Below, piece after piece: positions 17,068 to 63,631 of a stretch of DNA of 64,000 bases. Origin of the DNA: a virus. Its lineage: Duplodnaviria > Caudoviricetes. The position numbers and the translations under genes were made by a program. The stretch covers positions 32,001 through 96,000 of the IMG/VR virus record IMGVR_UViG_3300037400_002732. The stretch is one strand, 5' to 3'. Under the pieces are notes generated by a model, which saw only the letters and a list, made by a program, of their open reading frames with translations, was not told the origin of the DNA and ran no database searches. How positions within the stretch are numbered: the stretch's first letter is position 1; each line of letters opens with the position of its first letter.

Positions 17068-20000
17068 TTATTCCTGTTCGAGCAACTCGGTTTTAATGGT
17101 CTTACCGTTCTTCGTAGATTCGACAGAGGTACGAAGAATGATCCAGCGAGTAGACTTCGGCGGCAAGAGCTTGAGATCGACGAACAAGAAGTTCTGTTCA
17201 ATCGTGTCCGGAGTATTGTTGGAATCATTACAGATTACCTTGCCATCAATCAAACCAGGAGGATTCTGACGCTTGATGTTGTTCAGCTTTTCCTGGAGGT
17301 CTGACGTGATCTGAGCACGTAAAACAGTGGTATTGAGCTTAAATACCTTGTGGTCGAGATACTTGTAGAAGATCTTGTGAATACCAGCAACCAACATCGT
17401 AACGTGGACTTGGTTAAAGGCCGTATCTTCCATCTGGAGAGTCCAGTCACCCCAAATGCGGATGCCGTCCTTGTTCACGCGAGTCGCGTTGACATGGATG
17501 TCAGAAAGCTTAGCATGGTCACAGTTCTTGTCTTCAGAGTTGTATGTACGAGTGAAGCGTTCCTTGGTTCCCCAGGCAGCCGGAACGTATGCTTCGTCAC
17601 CAGAAGGCGGAATCCACCAGATGCCACCTTGACGGTTAGCAGTGATGATAGCAGCCAACTGCACGGACTTCATAACGTCAACTTGGCTCTGCGTATAGAT
17701 GGAGTCGGTGAACACGCCACGACCGTCGTAGATAAAGCCCCAACGACCGAGAGACAGCTGTCCAGCACTAATCATCTTCTTCACAGCCTTATGGATATCC
17801 GGTTCATACACACCGTCGAACAAGCAGAAGCAGTCCTTACGAGATTCGCACACGTTGATCATGGCTTGCATGACTTGAGTATTCAAGGTTTCATACTTAC
17901 GAGTAAACGGACTGTTGATATCGACACCAGCAGCAACGAGCATATCAACGTCGGATGCGTCCTTGTTCACGAACAAGTTCCACACCGTCGAGAGAGTGCT
18001 TCCGCTGTTGTTGTTCTGAGGATCGTAAGTCCACACAGCGTCGTTCACGATAGCAGGGTCTTCGTCGTTGTAGGCGATGGCGGTGTAGCTACCATTGAGC
18101 ATACCGTTCTGAATTGTCTGGGACAAGTCATAGGAGTTGTTCTCAAGGAAGTAGTCAAGCACACCAGAATCGTTGATGACGAATTCCAGACCGCTGTTTT
18201 CAAGTTCGTATTCGGCAGCTTCGACAATGCTCAGCTGGCGACCGTTGTAGTTGTACGGAACCACAGTACCTTCAAATTCGTAGAGCTTGCCGTTGAAGCG
18301 GTAGCGAATCGACATGAACATACGGGCCACGACAATACCGTCGTCAGTCAGAGTAAACACTTGCATCGGGTTGCCGTCAAAGTTGATATCAACGTAACGG
18401 TTCTTTGCAAGGCCGAGAGCCATGAAGCTTGCACCAATTTCAGAATCAGCCAAGACAATCGGAGATTTTTCGATTTCTGCACTAAAGACGCTAGTATTTG
18501 CATCGATAAAATCAAGGTCAGATGAAATCACGCCGTTAGGCAAATTACTGTCACCAACTGTAGCTATACCTTGGTCAACTTTGCTGACATACAACGAGTA
18601 GCTGGATACGAAAATCAAGTCAGCGTAATCGTAGGTAGTCGTCGTAGTCACATTCGGCGTTACGGACGTATCAGTCGTCGTCTCGCTAAGGCTAGTCGGA
18701 ACCGCATACACCGTCGCATTGGTTGTAGTCAAATTCAGCAACTGATATACAGCAGTAGAAGCAACCGTTACATTTGCCGGATAGCTATCGCTGGTATCTA
18801 CCGTAATTTCACCAGACATCGGATTAATTGCAGTGATTTTATACGTCTGCTTCGTGTATGCCGAAGTAGCCTGTAATGCTATGTCAACCGAAGTAGCACC
18901 GCGCACAATCGCAACAATATCACCGATAGAGTAATCATACGCCGCGCTTGGATCAACCATAATCTTGCCGTTAACCATAATCTTGCCTTCGTTATGGTTA
19001 ATGTCGTTCAATACAGCAACACGGCTATATGCCTTAATGCGCTGAATAGCGTTTGCAACTTCGTTCGCAACGTAATTCCAATTATTTGCAGAATCGCTTG
19101 CGGTGGCAGTAACATCAGCAAGTTCAATCGTATCGGACTGGCAGAACTCATTGACATTAACAGACGTTAATTGATACGTTCCATTAGCCAATTCGACATT
19201 ACCAACAATTTCATTGCCAGACACACCAGTTACTTGTACTGGTTTGGTTTCACTACCAGAAATACTGATGCTAAGTATATCTCCAGGGACAATATAAGAA
19301 TCAGCAGAATTGATACCGGTTCCGTTGATAGTGATCTTGTTACTAGAAACAACACCCGTAATCGAACTCTGAGAAGCAGCCGATGCAGCAGTCTGTTCGA
19401 ACGGCACTTTATTTGCGACCAAACGAACATAGAACTCAGAGCCAGACTTATCGCGGAATGTAATCATAGCACCGTTGCGAACCACAGAATTCGGCTTAGT
19501 AGGATTACCCTTACCAAAGCGAAGCGCAGCTACATTCTTAACGCTATTACCAGCAACCGCAGTTTTGATATTCAAATAATCGAATCCATCTGCAATCGCA
19601 TTTTCAGCGTCATTGAACATGATTACGTCTGGCACATTAGGATCCGGATATTCTTTTTTATCCACAAGAATCGTAACCACATTGTCAACAACATCATCGA
19701 CCGTTGCCAGTACACTCACTGCGGACGTTCCAGAATTACCATAGATATTTTCTTTCTTGTCAGTTTTAGGTATGAACACCGTGTCACCGCTGGTAAACAA
19801 CGGCTTAGATGACAACGTACACTCAAACTTCCTATATCCTTCGGGTGCACCAGCCGGAGTTTGAATCCTAACCACGTCATAACGGTCATAAGCACGGTTA
19901 GCGTAGCTCGGATCGCGGTTCATGATAGCGAACATCACCATGTCAGTGCAATGCTTGTTGTCGAACAAACGAGAAGCCTTACTGTCAGCGAAAGTTTCGC

Positions 20001-58465: not shown

Positions 58466-58502
58466 AGTTTATCATTACTAAATATCGGCAATTTGATAAA
58501 CT
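58466..58502. promoter_or_regulatory. divergent pair of ATAAACT putative late promoters
   Basis: AGTTTAT at 58466-58472 and ATAAACT at 58496-58502. Confidence 0.7.
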
Positions 58503-58527
58503 AGGCATAAACACTATTGGATTGATT

Positions 58528-60675
58528 ATGGCCCAGCACAATTTCAGTGAATTATTCGACGAATACCTTGATGACAAGGCATCCGATAAGCTAAGAAACC
58601 GATTGGCATCCGCCCAAGCCGATCTCGCTAAGTCACCAGTCGCCGACGAAATTCAAGCCAGTCTTGACGGCGGAGACATCGACCAAATTAAAGATTTGTT
58701 TACAATGCTAACACGAAGCAGTAAATCGACTGCTCCAGAAATTTGGAATGCACTGAAGCAAGACCGCAAGAACCTACTTGACGCAGCGGCCAACAAAAAA
58801 GTTAAGTCCAGTTCAATCGATTCGGCAATCAAGAAACTTAATCCCAAGCCGCAAAACGATACAGAAGCAAAGAAAGACAAACAGTTTGATGTAAATCTTC
58901 CCAATTTCTCACTAGAAAACGACAACATCTTTGGCGAGATGGGCGACGTATCGCTTGATGATCTGGCCAACGTCACCGACGACACTAAATCCGTTCCAGC
59001 TACAGCGTCAACGCAAGCTCAAGCTCAAGATCAAGCTCAAGCTCAAGCTCAAGATCAAGATCAAGCCCAAGCTCAAGATCAAGCTCAAGCTCAAGATCAA
59101 GATCAAGATCAAGATCAAGCAACAACCGAAGAAAACGACGCTGAAGCGGCGGCAACCGAGTTCGCAAACGAAGAAGAAATTCTGGACAATGATCCATTCC
59201 ATATCACTACAATAGACGATGAGGAAAAATCAGAAGAGGAAGAAAAAACAGTCGATCAAGCGCAAAGTGAGCAAGCACAAAGTGAACAAGCACAAAGTGA
59301 ACAAGCGCAAGGTGATAACAGCACAGCAGCAACAAACTCAGTCGATATTAATCCGGAAGAAGTAGAAGCAGAAGAAGCACGACGTCTGCGTGAAGCAGCA
59401 GAAGCCGCAAGACAGCAACGCGATGCAGAAGCCGCCGCTGCGGCACAACGCCAGCGCGATGCAGAAGCCGCCGCTGCGGCACAACGCCAGCGCGATGCAG
59501 AAGCCGCCGCTGCAGCACAACGCCAGCGCGATGCAGAAGCCGCCGCTGCAGCACAACACCAGCGCGATGCAGAAGCCGCGTCAGCTAGCCAAGAAGGCAA
59601 TGCAGATACTATCGATCTTCCCAATGACAGTGCGGATAATGTAAACTTCCGTGAACAATATTCAGATGTGTATGCCGAAATCGACGAAAAGGCCATTACA
59701 TCAGAACAAGCGGAGGAAGCCAAACGATATGCTGACCAAGTATTCGCTACTCCGGATGTTGAGCCGAGAGCGTATCATGCATTGACTGGAGGCCCCAGTG
59801 CGATTCGCACCAGGTGCATCGCTGGATTGCTGTCTACGGCAAATTCCAGACTAGGTTACAGATCTGACGGCGACCCAAGCACATCAAACCGCATCAACTT
59901 CAATGGCGGTGTCTCGTCCCAGGGTCACGTCGCTCCACACGTTCGCAGATCGTTTGTTATTCCCAATGGATTCGGCATGAAGCGCAATGCGTCCATCTGG
60001 AATACACCGATAATTACAGACTTCGGATTCCCATTCCTCAACTTCAGCTCTGAAGCCTTTCTCAACGTAATCAAGTCGGACGAAGATGATAAGGTTAAAA
60101 ACAGTAATCTGAAAGAAATGTTTAAGAATGCCAGCAAAACCCTCGGTGGTGTATGGAAGGCTATTCACGCAGCACCGCTTGAGTTGATTCGCCAAATCGC
60201 TCATGAGATTGGAACCAAATGTACGCCCAACTATCTCAGAGTTGATGGTAACGACTTGCTGACTGCAGAACCGGGTGAACGAGTAAGCGTCACGCCAATC
60301 AACTACTACAGCGTCAATCCGTCTTACTTGGGTGTCACGATGGTTCCATACGAATTCTTGACTAACTTCTACGATGTAATCGACTACAGCAGCACATCCC
60401 AGAACGTCTATTTGAAGTACTCTGATGGGTTGACTGCAGATGAATTCGCCGAAGAAATCAACGAGAACGATGGCATTCCTCCATTCTACATCCTCGTACC
60501 GAAGAACGCAAAATTTAGCAAGTGCCCCATCAAGTCCGGTAGCTTATTCGGTTCACTCATGAACGTCATCCTCGGTCGTCAGAAGTACATGATGGTCAAG
60601 ACAGTCTTCCAAGGCAAGCGTGGATGTATCGCAATGGACGAGCAAACCGCAGACAAGCTGTATTCCAACCTATAG
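58528..60675 (+). CDS. repeat-containing late protein, paralog of 62105..63631
   Basis: ATG at 58528; QA/QD, QAQSE and QRDAEAAAAAQR repeats; C-terminal GIPPFYILVP. Confidence 0.85.
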   Translation: MAQHNFSELFDEYLDDKASDKLRNRLASAQADLAKSPVADEIQASLDGGDIDQIKDLFTMLTRSSKSTAPEIWNALKQDRKNLLDAAANKKVKSSSIDSAIKKLNPKPQNDTEAKKDKQFDVNLPNFSLENDNIFGEMGDVSLDDLANVTDDTKSVPATASTQAQAQDQAQAQAQDQDQAQAQDQAQAQDQDQDQDQATTEENDAEAAATEFANEEEILDNDPFHITTIDDEEKSEEEEKTVDQAQSEQAQSEQAQSEQAQGDNSTAATNSVDINPEEVEAEEARRLREAAEAARQQRDAEAAAAAQRQRDAEAAAAAQRQRDAEAAAAAQRQRDAEAAAAAQHQRDAEAASASQEGNADTIDLPNDSADNVNFREQYSDVYAEIDEKAITSEQAEEAKRYADQVFATPDVEPRAYHALTGGPSAIRTRCIAGLLSTANSRLGYRSDGDPSTSNRINFNGGVSSQGHVAPHVRRSFVIPNGFGMKRNASIWNTPIITDFGFPFLNFSSEAFLNVIKSDEDDKVKNSNLKEMFKNASKTLGGVWKAIHAAPLELIRQIAHEIGTKCTPNYLRVDGNDLLTAEPGERVSVTPINYYSVNPSYLGVTMVPYEFLTNFYDVIDYSSTSQNVYLKYSDGLTADEFAEEINENDGIPPFYILVPKNAKFSKCPIKSGSLFGSLMNVILGRQKYMMVKTVFQGKRGCIAMDEQTADKLYSNL
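59014..59120 (+). repeat. coding hexamer microsatellite (CAAGCT/CAAGAT)n
   Basis: Encodes a QAQAQD run. Confidence 0.9.
59416..59580 (+). repeat. 36-bp coding tandem repeat, about 4.5 copies
   Basis: CAGCGCGATGCAGAAGCCGCCGCTGCRGCACAACGC encoding QRDAEAAAAAQR. Confidence 0.9.
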
Positions 60676-60678
60676 CAT

Positions 60679-60733
60679 TGTTTCATGTGAAACATTTTAT
60701 TGTTTCACGTGAAACATTGTTTCACATGAAACA
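60679..60733. promoter_or_regulatory. parS: array of three parS-type palindromes
   Basis: TGTTTCATGTGAAACA (60679-60694), TGTTTCACGTGAAACA (60701-60716), TGTTTCACATGAAACA (60718-60733). Confidence 0.85.
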
Positions 60734-60736
60734 TTG

Positions 60737-60764
60737 AAAATCCGTCAAACCATGGCGGATTTTT
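60737..60764 (+). terminator. rho-independent terminator for ORF 58528..60675
   Basis: AAAATCCGTCA-AACCA-TGGCGGATTTTT; the stem mismatch is a G:U pair on plus-strand RNA. Confidence 0.75.
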
Positions 60765-61953
60765 CTTGTATAATTGGTGAACTACTCACAGCGTAAAGGC
60801 TGTGAGCTTCGCGTTTCGTATCGATGTTTCCCGCGCCTTTAACCGCAGTCCCTGCGGCGATTAATCTTTTACCTTCGGTAAGGATGTTGATGGCGGCATT
60901 GACGTCACGGTCATGAGATGTTCCGCACTGCGGACACGTCCACGACCTTACGTTCAAGTCCTTGGCCAACATATTTCTATAACCACATCGATGACAGAGC
61001 TGAGTTGATGGAAACCATCGTCCGACACGGACGATGGTTCGTCCGTACCATTCAGCCTTATACTGTAGTTTGTTCAGAAACATCCTCCAAGCGGCGTCAT
61101 GTTCAGACTTCGCGTGGACACCCTCGGAGACCTCGCGCACGTCGAGATCTTCGACCACCACCGTTTGGTTCTCGCGGAGTAGTCGAGTGGACAGCTTGCC
61201 AAGAAAATCCTTCCTTCGGTTAGCAACTTTTTCATGTTCGCGAGCAATGCGTACGCGCAACTGCTCGCGTCTATTTGAACCTTTCTGCTTTTTGGATAAA
61301 GCTCGCTGAAGGTCAGCGATACGATTTTCCGATTCTTTTTGGAACCGAGGATTCGAGACAGCTTCGCCGTCGCTGGTAACGCAGAATTCTTTAAGCCCTA
61401 AGTCGATTCCTATTTCGAATTCGGATGTCGGCAGTGCCTTCGGCACAGCCTCCTCGACCAAGATCGACGCATAGTAATTTCCAGCACGTGACCGTGACAC
61501 GGTCACGTGCTTGATGTCCCTTACAGACCAGTCGATATCTTCGTAGTTGCGGAAGGAAACTAAGCCTACCTTCGGCAGACGGAGCCTCCGCCCTTCTACA
61601 CGAATGTTGTTTTTCGTACGGTAAGTTGTATATGAATCCTTGTCGTTGTGCTTTGTCTTGAACTGCGGAAATCCGACTCCGTCGGCTTTCCGATCGAAGA
61701 AGTTCTTGAATGCCGTATTCAACGTAAGCACTTCGGCTGTCAAGGCGTTCGAATCGACTTCTTTCAAGAAAGGAAACTCTGTGTAGAAATCCGTCGGCTT
61801 AGACCGGCACTGCATGCCGGTCGCCTCGTATGATTTCTTACGTGCTTCTAACATGCAGTTGTAGACCTTACGGCAGCAGCCGAAAGTCTTGCAGAGCAAG
61901 ACTTCCTGATGCTTGTTAGGATACAGTCTGACGTTGTAGGCACGTTGAAACAT
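60745..61953 (-). CDS. tnpB: RNA-guided endonuclease TnpB (IS200/IS605 family)
   Basis: HTH RAYNVRLYP..FGCCRKVYN; RuvC GIDLG, VEDL, DRDVNAAINI; zinc finger CHRC..CPQC; catalytic D/E/D intact. Confidence 0.96.
   Translation of the reverse strand: MFQRAYNVRLYPNKHQEVLLCKTFGCCRKVYNCMLEARKKSYEATGMQCRSKPTDFYTEFPFLKEVDSNALTAEVLTLNTAFKNFFDRKADGVGFPQFKTKHNDKDSYTTYRTKNNIRVEGRRLRLPKVGLVSFRNYEDIDWSVRDIKHVTVSRSRAGNYYASILVEEAVPKALPTSEFEIGIDLGLKEFCVTSDGEAVSNPRFQKESENRIADLQRALSKKQKGSNRREQLRVRIAREHEKVANRRKDFLGKLSTRLLRENQTVVVEDLDVREVSEGVHAKSEHDAAWRMFLNKLQYKAEWYGRTIVRVGRWFPSTQLCHRCGYRNMLAKDLNVRSWTCPQCGTSHDRDVNAAINILTEGKRLIAAGTAVKGAGNIDTKREAHSLYAVSSSPIIQEKSAMV
60757..60900 (-). ncRNA. predicted omegaRNA/reRNA (5' boundary approximate), guide CAATTATACAAGAAAAATCC
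   Basis: TnpB omegaRNAs overlap the tnpB 3' end and right end and read into the flank; boundary set by the TCAC end at 60777. Confidence 0.6.
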
Positions 61954-62072
61954 GGTTCAATAGTTCTAATCTTTATTTTTTATATAGTTTATAACTAGTT
62001 AAATTATTTTTGTCACGTTCCGTGCCTATTATCTGCCACCCTTTATGGTGGCAGTTTTCTCAGTGCGTTCTT
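60777..62072 (-). mobile_element. non-autonomous tnpB-only IS200/IS605 element, 1296 bp
   Basis: Left end: TTAT|AAG...AAAA plus hairpin 62033-62054. Right end: GAAG plus hairpin 60785-60806, then TAGTTCAC|. No tnpA. Confidence 0.85.
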
Positions 62073-62104
62073 ATAAACTGCACACAAATCACGTTGAGTA
62101 AACC

Positions 62105-63631
62105 ATGAAGACTAAGGCTATTTTAGAAAGCAACGCTATGCAAGATAACGAGCTTGCCGCGAATGGTGGTGATATTGACAACACTGGTATCCCAAGTGGT
62201 CTTCCTTTGGCTAAAGGCCAGCAAGGTAATGTCAAGTCCGAGCAAAAACTGCTGAATGACGCCTTTGACGAAGGCTACGATGAAGCTATGCTCGACGCTG
62301 ACCTGGCTGCCGAACAGAAAGCAAGCGAAGATCCGTTTGGCCCAGAGACAAAGCATACTATTAAATTCGATGAAGAAGCTGAACGAGACAATGTCGATCT
62401 TCCAGAACAACAAGAAAGCTATATCGACCAACTGGCCAAGTACTACCGAGTAATGGCTCAAGAATTCAAGCTACGTTTTCACGACAAGCCAGAAGACGGC
62501 GAAAAGCTGGCACAGTTCTTAGTCACTAAGATTCTCAGCAAGCCGAACAGCACCAATGCGCAAAAATGGATCGATTACATCAACAACAGGGCGCAGAAAG
62601 GCAAGAGTAAGTCAATAATCCAGATGAAGATTATTCCTACGTTAGCTAAAGCGGCCAACATCGAAGTACCTCGTCAAGTCAACAACGAACAAACTGAATA
62701 TATCGCAAACCGAAATGGAAATTTCGTAGGGTCTATAGTCGTTCCGGAAGGCTTCAACCAGCCGCCAATCGACTTAGGCAATACAGCGATCTCATTCGAA
62801 TTTGGATACCCGGCAATCAACTACAAGAGTAAACTGATCACCGAAATTACTGGGGAAACCGAACAGAATCGTCTCAAGAAGTTGCTAATCGCATTGATCG
62901 AGCAAATCAACGGAACTCCAGCAGCGAAGACATTTTTGACTCGCGGCGTATTTCAATCATGGACTGGAAAGAAAGCTCGTTCAACATTGAATCGAGTGAT
63001 TAAAGAAGCGGCCCATGCAATGGGTGTTCCAATGATTCGTCGTCCATTAAAAGTTACCGCGCAAGCATTAGTCGGCGACTCAGAGGCTGAAGACATTTCA
63101 TGCATCCCTATCAATCAGACTGCCAACAAGAAGGCGATCGTACGCGAGTCAATAGACGCAAACGATACGAACGCATTATATGAGGGCCCTATCAACTTTA
63201 TCAAGAATCGCTTTAAAGCTGACTCGACTTCCGCACAGATGTTCGGTCAACCAGTAACATTGAACCGCAATTACTTGTGCCAATTCTATACCGTCTTGGC
63301 ACCAAGTGGTACAGCCGGTCTGACTAAGTACGCAAGGTTCATGGATCAAGACGATTACGACAATATAGTCAGTAAGCTTGGCGAGAAAACAATGCAAGAA
63401 ATCAAGGACGCCAACAGCAATGTGAACGACCGTTTGTTCATTGATTATCTCAACAAGACTAGCGGGGTTCCGCCATTCTATATCCTTATTCCTCGTAAGA
63501 ACGAACGCATCCGCGTATGCGACGAGAATATGGTAAACGGCAATGTCTGCGTCAAGTCAATCGACAGCAAAAACAAGGAAGCATACTTCTTCCCTCAAGA
63601 AAATGTTAAATCCGTATTCGAAGCTGGGTAA
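62105..63631 (+). CDS. late protein, paralog of 58528..60675
   Basis: ATAAACT at 62073-62079; N-terminal AILES; GVPPFYILIP. Confidence 0.85.
   Translation: MKTKAILESNAMQDNELAANGGDIDNTGIPSGLPLAKGQQGNVKSEQKLLNDAFDEGYDEAMLDADLAAEQKASEDPFGPETKHTIKFDEEAERDNVDLPEQQESYIDQLAKYYRVMAQEFKLRFHDKPEDGEKLAQFLVTKILSKPNSTNAQKWIDYINNRAQKGKSKSIIQMKIIPTLAKAANIEVPRQVNNEQTEYIANRNGNFVGSIVVPEGFNQPPIDLGNTAISFEFGYPAINYKSKLITEITGETEQNRLKKLLIALIEQINGTPAAKTFLTRGVFQSWTGKKARSTLNRVIKEAAHAMGVPMIRRPLKVTAQALVGDSEAEDISCIPINQTANKKAIVRESIDANDTNALYEGPINFIKNRFKADSTSAQMFGQPVTLNRNYLCQFYTVLAPSGTAGLTKYARFMDQDDYDNIVSKLGEKTMQEIKDANSNVNDRLFIDYLNKTSGVPPFYILIPRKNERIRVCDENMVNGNVCVKSIDSKNKEAYFFPQENVKSVFEAG

Follow-up and report, generated by a model that had tools for sequence, protein, structure and literature searches.

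We analysed a window of 64,000 nucleotides, the whole stretch of DNA presented here, which is held in a 174,807-bp viral record (G000:32001-96000) with a CheckV completeness of 46%. Close to its right end, the window carries three 16-bp palindromes of the chromosomal parS type, placed between a late gene and the terminator that follows it. The features of the locus, numbered from the first letter of the window, are these:

58495-58503, plus strand: late-promoter-like motif GATAAACTA, heading the transcription unit that contains the array
58528-60675, plus strand: upstream orphan late gene, 715 aa from the ATG at 58528 (the open reading frame is listed from the TTG at 58522)
60679-60694, no strand: parS site 1, TGTTTCATGTGAAACA, with the central CG changed to TG and a perfect right half-site
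60701-60716, no strand: parS site 2, TGTTTCACGTGAAACA, the perfect consensus (16/16)
60718-60733, no strand: parS site 3, TGTTTCACATGAAACA, which is site 1 inverted (15/16)
60736-60769, no strand: bidirectional intrinsic terminator hairpin, flanked by A and T runs
60777-62072, minus strand: tnpB-only insertion of the IS200/IS605 type, with OrfB_IS605, Cas12f1-like TNB and HTH matches
62073-62079, plus strand: late-promoter motif ATAAACT of the next gene, which starts at the ATG at 62105 and encodes 508 aa

Compared with the chromosomal-type parS palindrome tGTTNCACGTGAAACa, site 2 matches at 16 of 16 positions and sites 1 and 3 at 15 of 16. The latter two are a single duplex variant in opposite orientations, with the central CpG turned into TpG, and their intact half-sites point toward the perfect site 2. 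The repeat period of the array is 17-22 bp. Coordinates and sequences were exactly those of the initial annotation, which had described one perfect and two single-mismatch palindromes within 55 bp. As a class, 16-bp palindromes are not rare (about 2.6 expected per genome, 2 found in G000); for the perfect parS 16-mer, simple arithmetic gives around 4e-5 expected occurrences per 175 kb. We scanned the 64-kb window allowing up to three mismatches and found no parS-like site beyond the three. The same result was obtained for the whole G000 record at up to two mismatches, so the full-genome scan that had been suggested as a check leaves the array's three sites as the sole parS-like sites in G000.

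The TAG stop codon of the upstream late gene occupies 60673-60675; the array begins 3 nt downstream of it and ends 2 nt before the terminator hairpin, which agrees with the placement between a stop codon and its terminator given at the outset. In both G000 and a related genome, G001 (348,092 bp, 91% complete), ATAAACT is the dominant intergenic motif, with enrichments in intergenic DNA of about 10-fold and 5-fold, respectively. Since the array is transcribed within the late 3'UTR, RNA polymerase passes through it. The parS palindrome lacks the marks of an intrinsic terminator, as it is AT-rich and has no T-run of its own, and a separate canonical terminator follows. Regarding the upstream late gene, its product gave no Pfam or PHROG match, and an alignment of homologues showed that the C-terminal domain, some 350 aa long, is conserved. 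A single-protein scan of viral contigs and a tblastn search against cultured phages returned no relatives of this protein (in its 717-aa form), and the proteins flanking the array had no relatives in PDB or the Atlas.

The tnpB insertion separates the terminator from the late promoter of the next gene and leaves the array outside, and the stop codon of the tnpB reading frame (60745-60747, minus strand) falls inside the loop of the terminator hairpin. Contigs from runs X5 (bovine) and X7 (sheep), which belong to independent studies, join 60763 to 62073 and are therefore IS-free alleles; both still carry the array. In these alleles and in the relatives described below, the ATAAACT of the next gene adjoins the terminator region, and IS-free relatives keep the array too, so that it neither belongs to nor moves with the IS200/IS605 element. 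The initial annotation had likewise put the array outside the neighbouring IS. Its presence in IS-free alleles of two independent metagenome studies implies that it is neither borne by the IS nor an assembly artefact. Relative to the window, the X5 allele has a site 3 that reads TGTTCCACGTGAAACA, the change T60697C in a spacer, and a 14-nt insertion, TGTTTCACACAAAA, after 60717 that forms an additional half-site, besides lacking the IS. The array is thus evolving yet staying parS-like. In run X5, many unrelated short contigs also stack on the 16-mers; these are presumably parS sites of other organisms in the same samples.

Gut metagenomes of cattle and sheep, from some 12 studies, contain the window stretch. 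It encodes a T4-type set of replication and recombination proteins, namely PolB, a clamp loader, a gp61-like primase, a gp32-like SSB, a gp41-like helicase and UvsX, and further an SbcD-like nuclease and a myovirus tail sheath. The earlier label of a T4-like phage is right for the replication module, at a distance in which PolB is only about 25% identical to that of cultured T4-likes. The size of G001 makes the window phage a jumbo phage, and we conclude that it is an uncultured cow-rumen myovirus of the T4 type, with a genome of about 350-380 kb. None of the ParB profiles (PF02195, TIGR00180 and PF17762 HTH_ParB) or ParA profiles (PF13614 AAA_31 and PF01656 CbiA) matched in the 91%-complete G001 or in G000, which at 46% completeness could hold such a gene on its missing part; the absence of parA and parB that had been reported for the window therefore extends across both records. 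Tyrosine and serine recombinases (integrases) were not found in G000 or G001 either, and, together with the T4-type replication module, this is the make-up of a lytic-type phage without an integration module. Instead of the parA-parB operon that stands beside the centromere in P1, N15 and plasmid cassettes, the array has an orphan late gene on one side and the tnpB IS on the other.

Short palindromes are massively avoided in these genomes, with many 6-bp palindromes present in 0-2 copies where 30-90 are expected. Eight hexamers with 30-47 copies expected by composition are missing from G000 (AGGCCT, CCCGGG, CCGCGG, CCTAGG, CGCGCG, CGGCCG, CTCGAG and GTATAC), GGWCC is almost absent from it (2 copies), and CACGTG appears 5 times against about 38 expected. 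In G001, at least 14 hexamer palindromes have zero copies. This pattern suggests that the genomes are widely exposed to type II restriction, and the phage DNA is probably not hypermodified. Because the genomes purge short palindromes, the retention of the parS palindrome is more telling, and the same purging may explain the loss of the central CACGTG in the two extra copies, sites 1 and 3.

With an alignment of upstream-protein homologues we retrieved 2 loci from viruses, 22 from metagenomes and 2 from MAGs. A tree of the conserved C-terminal domain has two clades, each with 100/100 support. In the clade of the window, most lineages have one to three parS sites 3-5 nt downstream of the orthologous stop codon:

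L086, the same as L092 (G001): one perfect parS
L088/L089/L091: one perfect parS
L248/L249: one perfect parS
L090: one TGTTCCACGTGAAACA
L093: TGTTTCACGTGGAACA and one perfect parS
Window: three parS sites; the X5 allele of the window phage has a variant array

The site is kept in five of the six tree lineages of the window clade, in L248/L249, which were found later, and in the X5 allele. L097, a close relative of the L088 lineage, was left out of the tally: from L097:3550 onward, a related tnpB element sits with its right end flush against the orthologous stop codon, and the contig ends within the IS. In L093 (3658-3720), two parS sites with a 20-bp period are followed by the next promoter motif, GATAAACT, with no recognisable intrinsic terminator between them, unlike every other lineage. 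At the orthologous position, the L085 group of the window clade and all of the sister clade show a terminator but no parS; the site is therefore dispensable. A search of IMG/VR for the combination of parS and late promoter gave no further members of this jumbo-phage group.

Between the parS-bearing lineages, synonymous third positions are only 42-48% identical and the 40 nt past the array 44%, and the terminators that follow are orthologous in place and unrelated in sequence. Each of these lineages nevertheless holds either a 16/16 site or a 15/16 site that is a natural variant. At about 45% per-site identity, the neutral retention of 16 out of 16 positions between two lineages has, by arithmetic, a probability of about 3e-6. 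G001 contains exactly one parS-like site in its 348 kb, and it lies at the orthologous spot. With conserved synteny and flanks that are about 45% identical, the parS sequence is held by selection and not by chance. The adjacent terminators, selected for structure, drift in sequence and parS does not, which indicates that parS is read in a sequence-specific manner. The alignments point to strong purifying selection on parS at a fixed syntenic position in seven lineages, and the possibility raised beforehand, that the array would be absent from relatives, was not borne out.

Regarding other viruses, we found tandem perfect parS sites (2-6 copies, with variable spacers and invariant 16-mers) in 81 IMG/VR stretches, of which 80 are listed (L004-L083); the GC content of this DNA spans 26-73% among the matches listed. 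A ParB_N protein was present in only 1 of the 25 tandem-parS viral records tested, and in none of the eight that are at least 90% complete. Three of the five small tandem-parS genomes tested are of the phi29 type, with a protein-primed PolB. In a large group of 42-kb DTR phages (GC 54%), the end of a gene is followed by a parS doublet and a terminator, between a recombination module and a holin. In phi29 itself (NC_011048), four exact TGTTCCACGTGAAACA sites were found, of which that at 17243-17258 fits directly between the gene 16 stop codon and the annotated bidirectional terminator TD1; the order of stop codon, parS and terminator is therefore the same in phi29, the window phage and the 42-kb group. 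We also observed about 14 viral contigs of GC ~53% (within L251-L273, e.g. L252:11919-11963) that share a block opening with TGTTCCACGTGAAACA; the sequence after it is identical and the sequence upstream varies between contigs, so this appears to be another parS-containing module. Since unrelated phages without ParB have identical tandem 16-mers, only a universal host factor explains their recurrence. These phages lack a common private DNA-binding protein but their hosts have ParB, which makes ParB the candidate reader.

The perfect 16-mer is the parS consensus used throughout the ParB literature, and it located parS, together with ParABS, in all 12 gut bacteria tested in one study, Bacteroides included. 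A T or C at position 5 (half-sites GTTTCAC and GTTCCAC) is documented natural variation, and TGTTCCACGTGAAACA or its complement in L090, L093 and the X5 allele falls within it. As for the central variant, TGTTTCATGTGAAACA is present in 7 of 61 Fibrobacter and 8 of 61 Prevotella genomes, with none for the reversed control and about 0.1 expected, and in two genomes of this set it forms inverted pairs about 700 bp apart. As judged from their sequences, the variants seen in the phage arrays are natural chromosomal parS variants. Our literature search found no documentation of how the central CG-to-TG change affects ParB affinity, and no 16-mers with such a central change.

Near-identical contigs of related phages were binned in Prevotella sp. 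ruminal_MAG_415 (L248, a 148-kb contig) and in Fibrobacter sp. ruminal_MAG_346 (L249). These bins represent two different phyla, and a binning artefact is probable in at least one case. Mutually conflicting MAG binning is thus what suggests Prevotella or Fibrobacter as candidate hosts. Each of the two MAGs encodes ParB and has native parS sites of this consensus, so that, for candidates taken from binning, the proviso that the host might use a different parS holds for neither genus. In the Fibrobacter MAG, a cluster of four parS sites, including TGTTTCATGTGAAACA, lies 2-6.5 kb from parB; all four carry one mismatch, and site 2 of the phage matches the consensus better. TGTTTCATGTGAAACA is equally common in the two genera and does not discriminate between them. 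Among other pointers to the host, there were no tRNAs in the window, a promoter-type scan was uninformative except for the phage's own ATAAACT motif, and SD-like motifs ahead of about half of the genes give a weak hint. Prevotella and Fibrobacter do not sporulate.

In G000, the parS array lies at 92.7 kb, with the main strand switch at 90.4 kb and the minimum of the cumulative GC skew at about 99 kb. The corresponding values in G001 are 83.75 kb, 81.7 kb and about 87 kb, although a skew minimum in a phage is a qualified marker of an origin because phage skew follows transcription too. The placement resembles the origin-proximal position of parS on bacterial chromosomes. We rejected the idea that the locus mimics oriC, since there is no DnaA-box cluster in G000 or G001. 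Besides, the second-longest non-coding gap of the G000 record (G000:98795-99173, 2.8 kb past the window end) coincides with the GC-skew minimum, 6 kb from parS, and no DnaA boxes were seen in it.

We favour, with a probability of roughly 0.6, a reading in which the array nucleates host ParB, whose CTP clamps would spread over the phage DNA and link the genome to ParA and SMC. After DNA entry, host ParB dimers would nucleate on the perfect site 2 and, more weakly, on the variants 1 and 3. The dimers would then bind CTP, close into clamps and slide onto adjacent phage DNA. The resulting partition complex could connect the unpackaged phage genome to the host ParA and SMC machinery, and the genome would be positioned, compacted or partitioned like a small chromosome. 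By analogy to phi29, the benefit would be greatest in a slow or deferred infection (carrier state); we know of no carrier states of T4-type phages that need partition. The initial annotation had proposed that a phage without parA and parB carries a centromere mimic. This core proposal is well supported by the comparative evidence, i.e. selection at a fixed position, natural variants and no ParAB, and from it we infer ParB binding, clamp spreading and a benefit to the phage.

The alternative that shares most with host ParB loading is that the sites act as a sink, in which amplifying phage DNA would draw ParB, with its control of ParA and of SMC loading, off the host origin, and the phage would profit from disrupted chromosome segregation or cell-cycle control. 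Whatever speaks for ParB binding speaks for the sink as well. Besides, the perfect site of the phage beats all four one-mismatch sites of the native cluster in the Fibrobacter MAG, the copy number of the site grew from 1 to 2-3 in two lineages, and replication of a jumbo genome multiplies the sites. However, only one site per roughly 350 kb is present in most lineages, which would make a poor sink at the start of infection, and lytic T4-type phages have more direct routes to host shutdown, which counts against this explanation. We consider both the titration and the advantage drawn from it unlikely. The palindrome could also be the target of a protein encoded by the phage, with a role in packaging, replication initiation or regulation, in which case its likeness to parS would be coincidental. 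Its uniqueness in the genome, its closeness, within a few kb in G000 and G001 alike, to the main strand switch and the GC-skew minimum, and flanking proteins without known function would all fit. Against this, only an extreme coincidence would produce both a 16/16 identity to the consensus and variants that follow natural parS variation, unrelated phages that lack any such common protein have arrays of the same 16-mer, no ParB-type HTH is encoded in the phage, and neither a DnaA-box cluster nor any other origin signature lies nearby. A phage-encoded reader is, in our judgement, distinctly improbable.

Given that the array lies within a transcription unit and upstream of its terminator, one could argue that it works as RNA in the 3'UTR of the late mRNA, as stabilising hairpins, an RNase III site or a helper of the terminator. 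In the three-copy array, sites 1 and 2 do pair into a long stem (-43 kcal/mol with the terminator included, z = -8.3), and the layout of stop codon, palindrome and terminator recurs in phi29 and the 42-kb phage group. Elements selected for structure drift like the neighbouring terminators, though, whereas parS is sequence-invariant across lineages; relatives with one copy could fold no more than a stem of about 6 bp, the C at position 5 in the L090 variant disrupts one pair, and the palindrome comes without a T-run of its own. A role in RNA thus seems very improbable to us. Finally, the array might be a functionless passenger, be it recently captured host DNA, a by-product of tnpB or an assembly artefact of short tandem repeats. 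It adjoins a mobile element and repeats in tandem every 17-22 bp, but IS-free alleles and syntenic IS-free relatives carry it, contigs from independent studies contain it, and it persists across lineages that have come close to saturation at synonymous sites. These observations contradict a passenger or artefact, which we find hardly credible.

Host ParB loading may reach beyond this phage. We consider it possible, at somewhat less than even odds, that an orphan host-type parS is a widespread and repeatedly evolved device with which ParB-less phages load ParB-CTP clamps of the host. If so, its carriers would range in size from protein-primed podoviruses of 15 kb to T4-type jumbo phages of 350 kb and would include phages of non-sporulating Gram-negative anaerobes, with ParA and SMC reached via ParB. 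In phages as varied as these, spore entrapment would not do as the payoff, which would have to be general (positioning, condensation or partition of phage genomes, be they replicating or dormant, or takeover of the segregation machinery). ParB-CTP clamps and the loading of SMC have a central place in the biology of bacterial chromosomes, and phi29, in the special setting of sporulation, is the only phage shown to exploit ParB through host-type parS. Phages would then commonly connect to the segregation and condensin machinery of their hosts, which bears on how large phage genomes are organised in the cell, on persistence in the gut as carrier states and on interference with the host cell cycle. 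The 55-bp array is also a small reagent that can be tested for ParB binding, for plasmid stabilisation or incompatibility, and by imaging ParB foci.

Among known systems, the phage-plasmids P1 and N15 are temperate and have their own parA-parB or sopAB with a private centromere. Like them, the window phage would bear on its genome a centromere for segregation as an extrachromosomal replicon; unlike them, it lacks ParA, ParB and integrase and bears a site of the host-chromosome type. Regarding the bacterial chromosomal parS/ParB-CTP system, the 16-bp sequence and its natural variants are identical to those of the phage, and the sites are clustered or in tandem as in many chromosomes. The differences are that the phage replicon has no cognate parAB operon or nearby DnaA-box origin, reaches high copy number and kills the cell. 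The genomic island SGI1 offers another parallel: it is reported to use its own parS to hijack the ParABS of an IncC plasmid, and is thus a mobile element without partition proteins that bears the centromere of another replicon and relies on ParAB in trans (PMC10954446). The hijacked system is, however, that of a helper plasmid and not of the host chromosome, and SGI1 is an integrative island and not a phage.

The closest precedent is phi29, a virulent Bacillus phage in which, according to the summary of Meijer et al. 2005 in PMC2731898, host Spo0J binds five host-type parS sites and helps to trap the genome in the spore. The principle of a host-type parS on a phage is thus not new, a precedent that the initial annotation had missed, and our literature search returned no paper on host-type parS in T4-like or jumbo phages. 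Like the window phage, phi29 and Nf are lytic-type phages without ParB that carry parS of the host chromosome. They part ways in that phi29 is a 19-kb protein-primed podovirus of a spore-forming host with five dispersed sites, mostly inside genes, whereas the window phage, a rumen T4-type myovirus, keeps its sites together in a tandem cluster, at one intergenic position that is conserved. The demonstrated benefit for phi29 is spore entrapment, together with Spo0A boxes; the candidate hosts of the window phage do not sporulate, so this benefit is probably inapplicable to it. Relative to phi29, the novelty lies in the type of phage, the probable type of host, the gathering of the sites into one conserved tandem cluster, and the wide range of phages lacking ParB in which such arrays occur.
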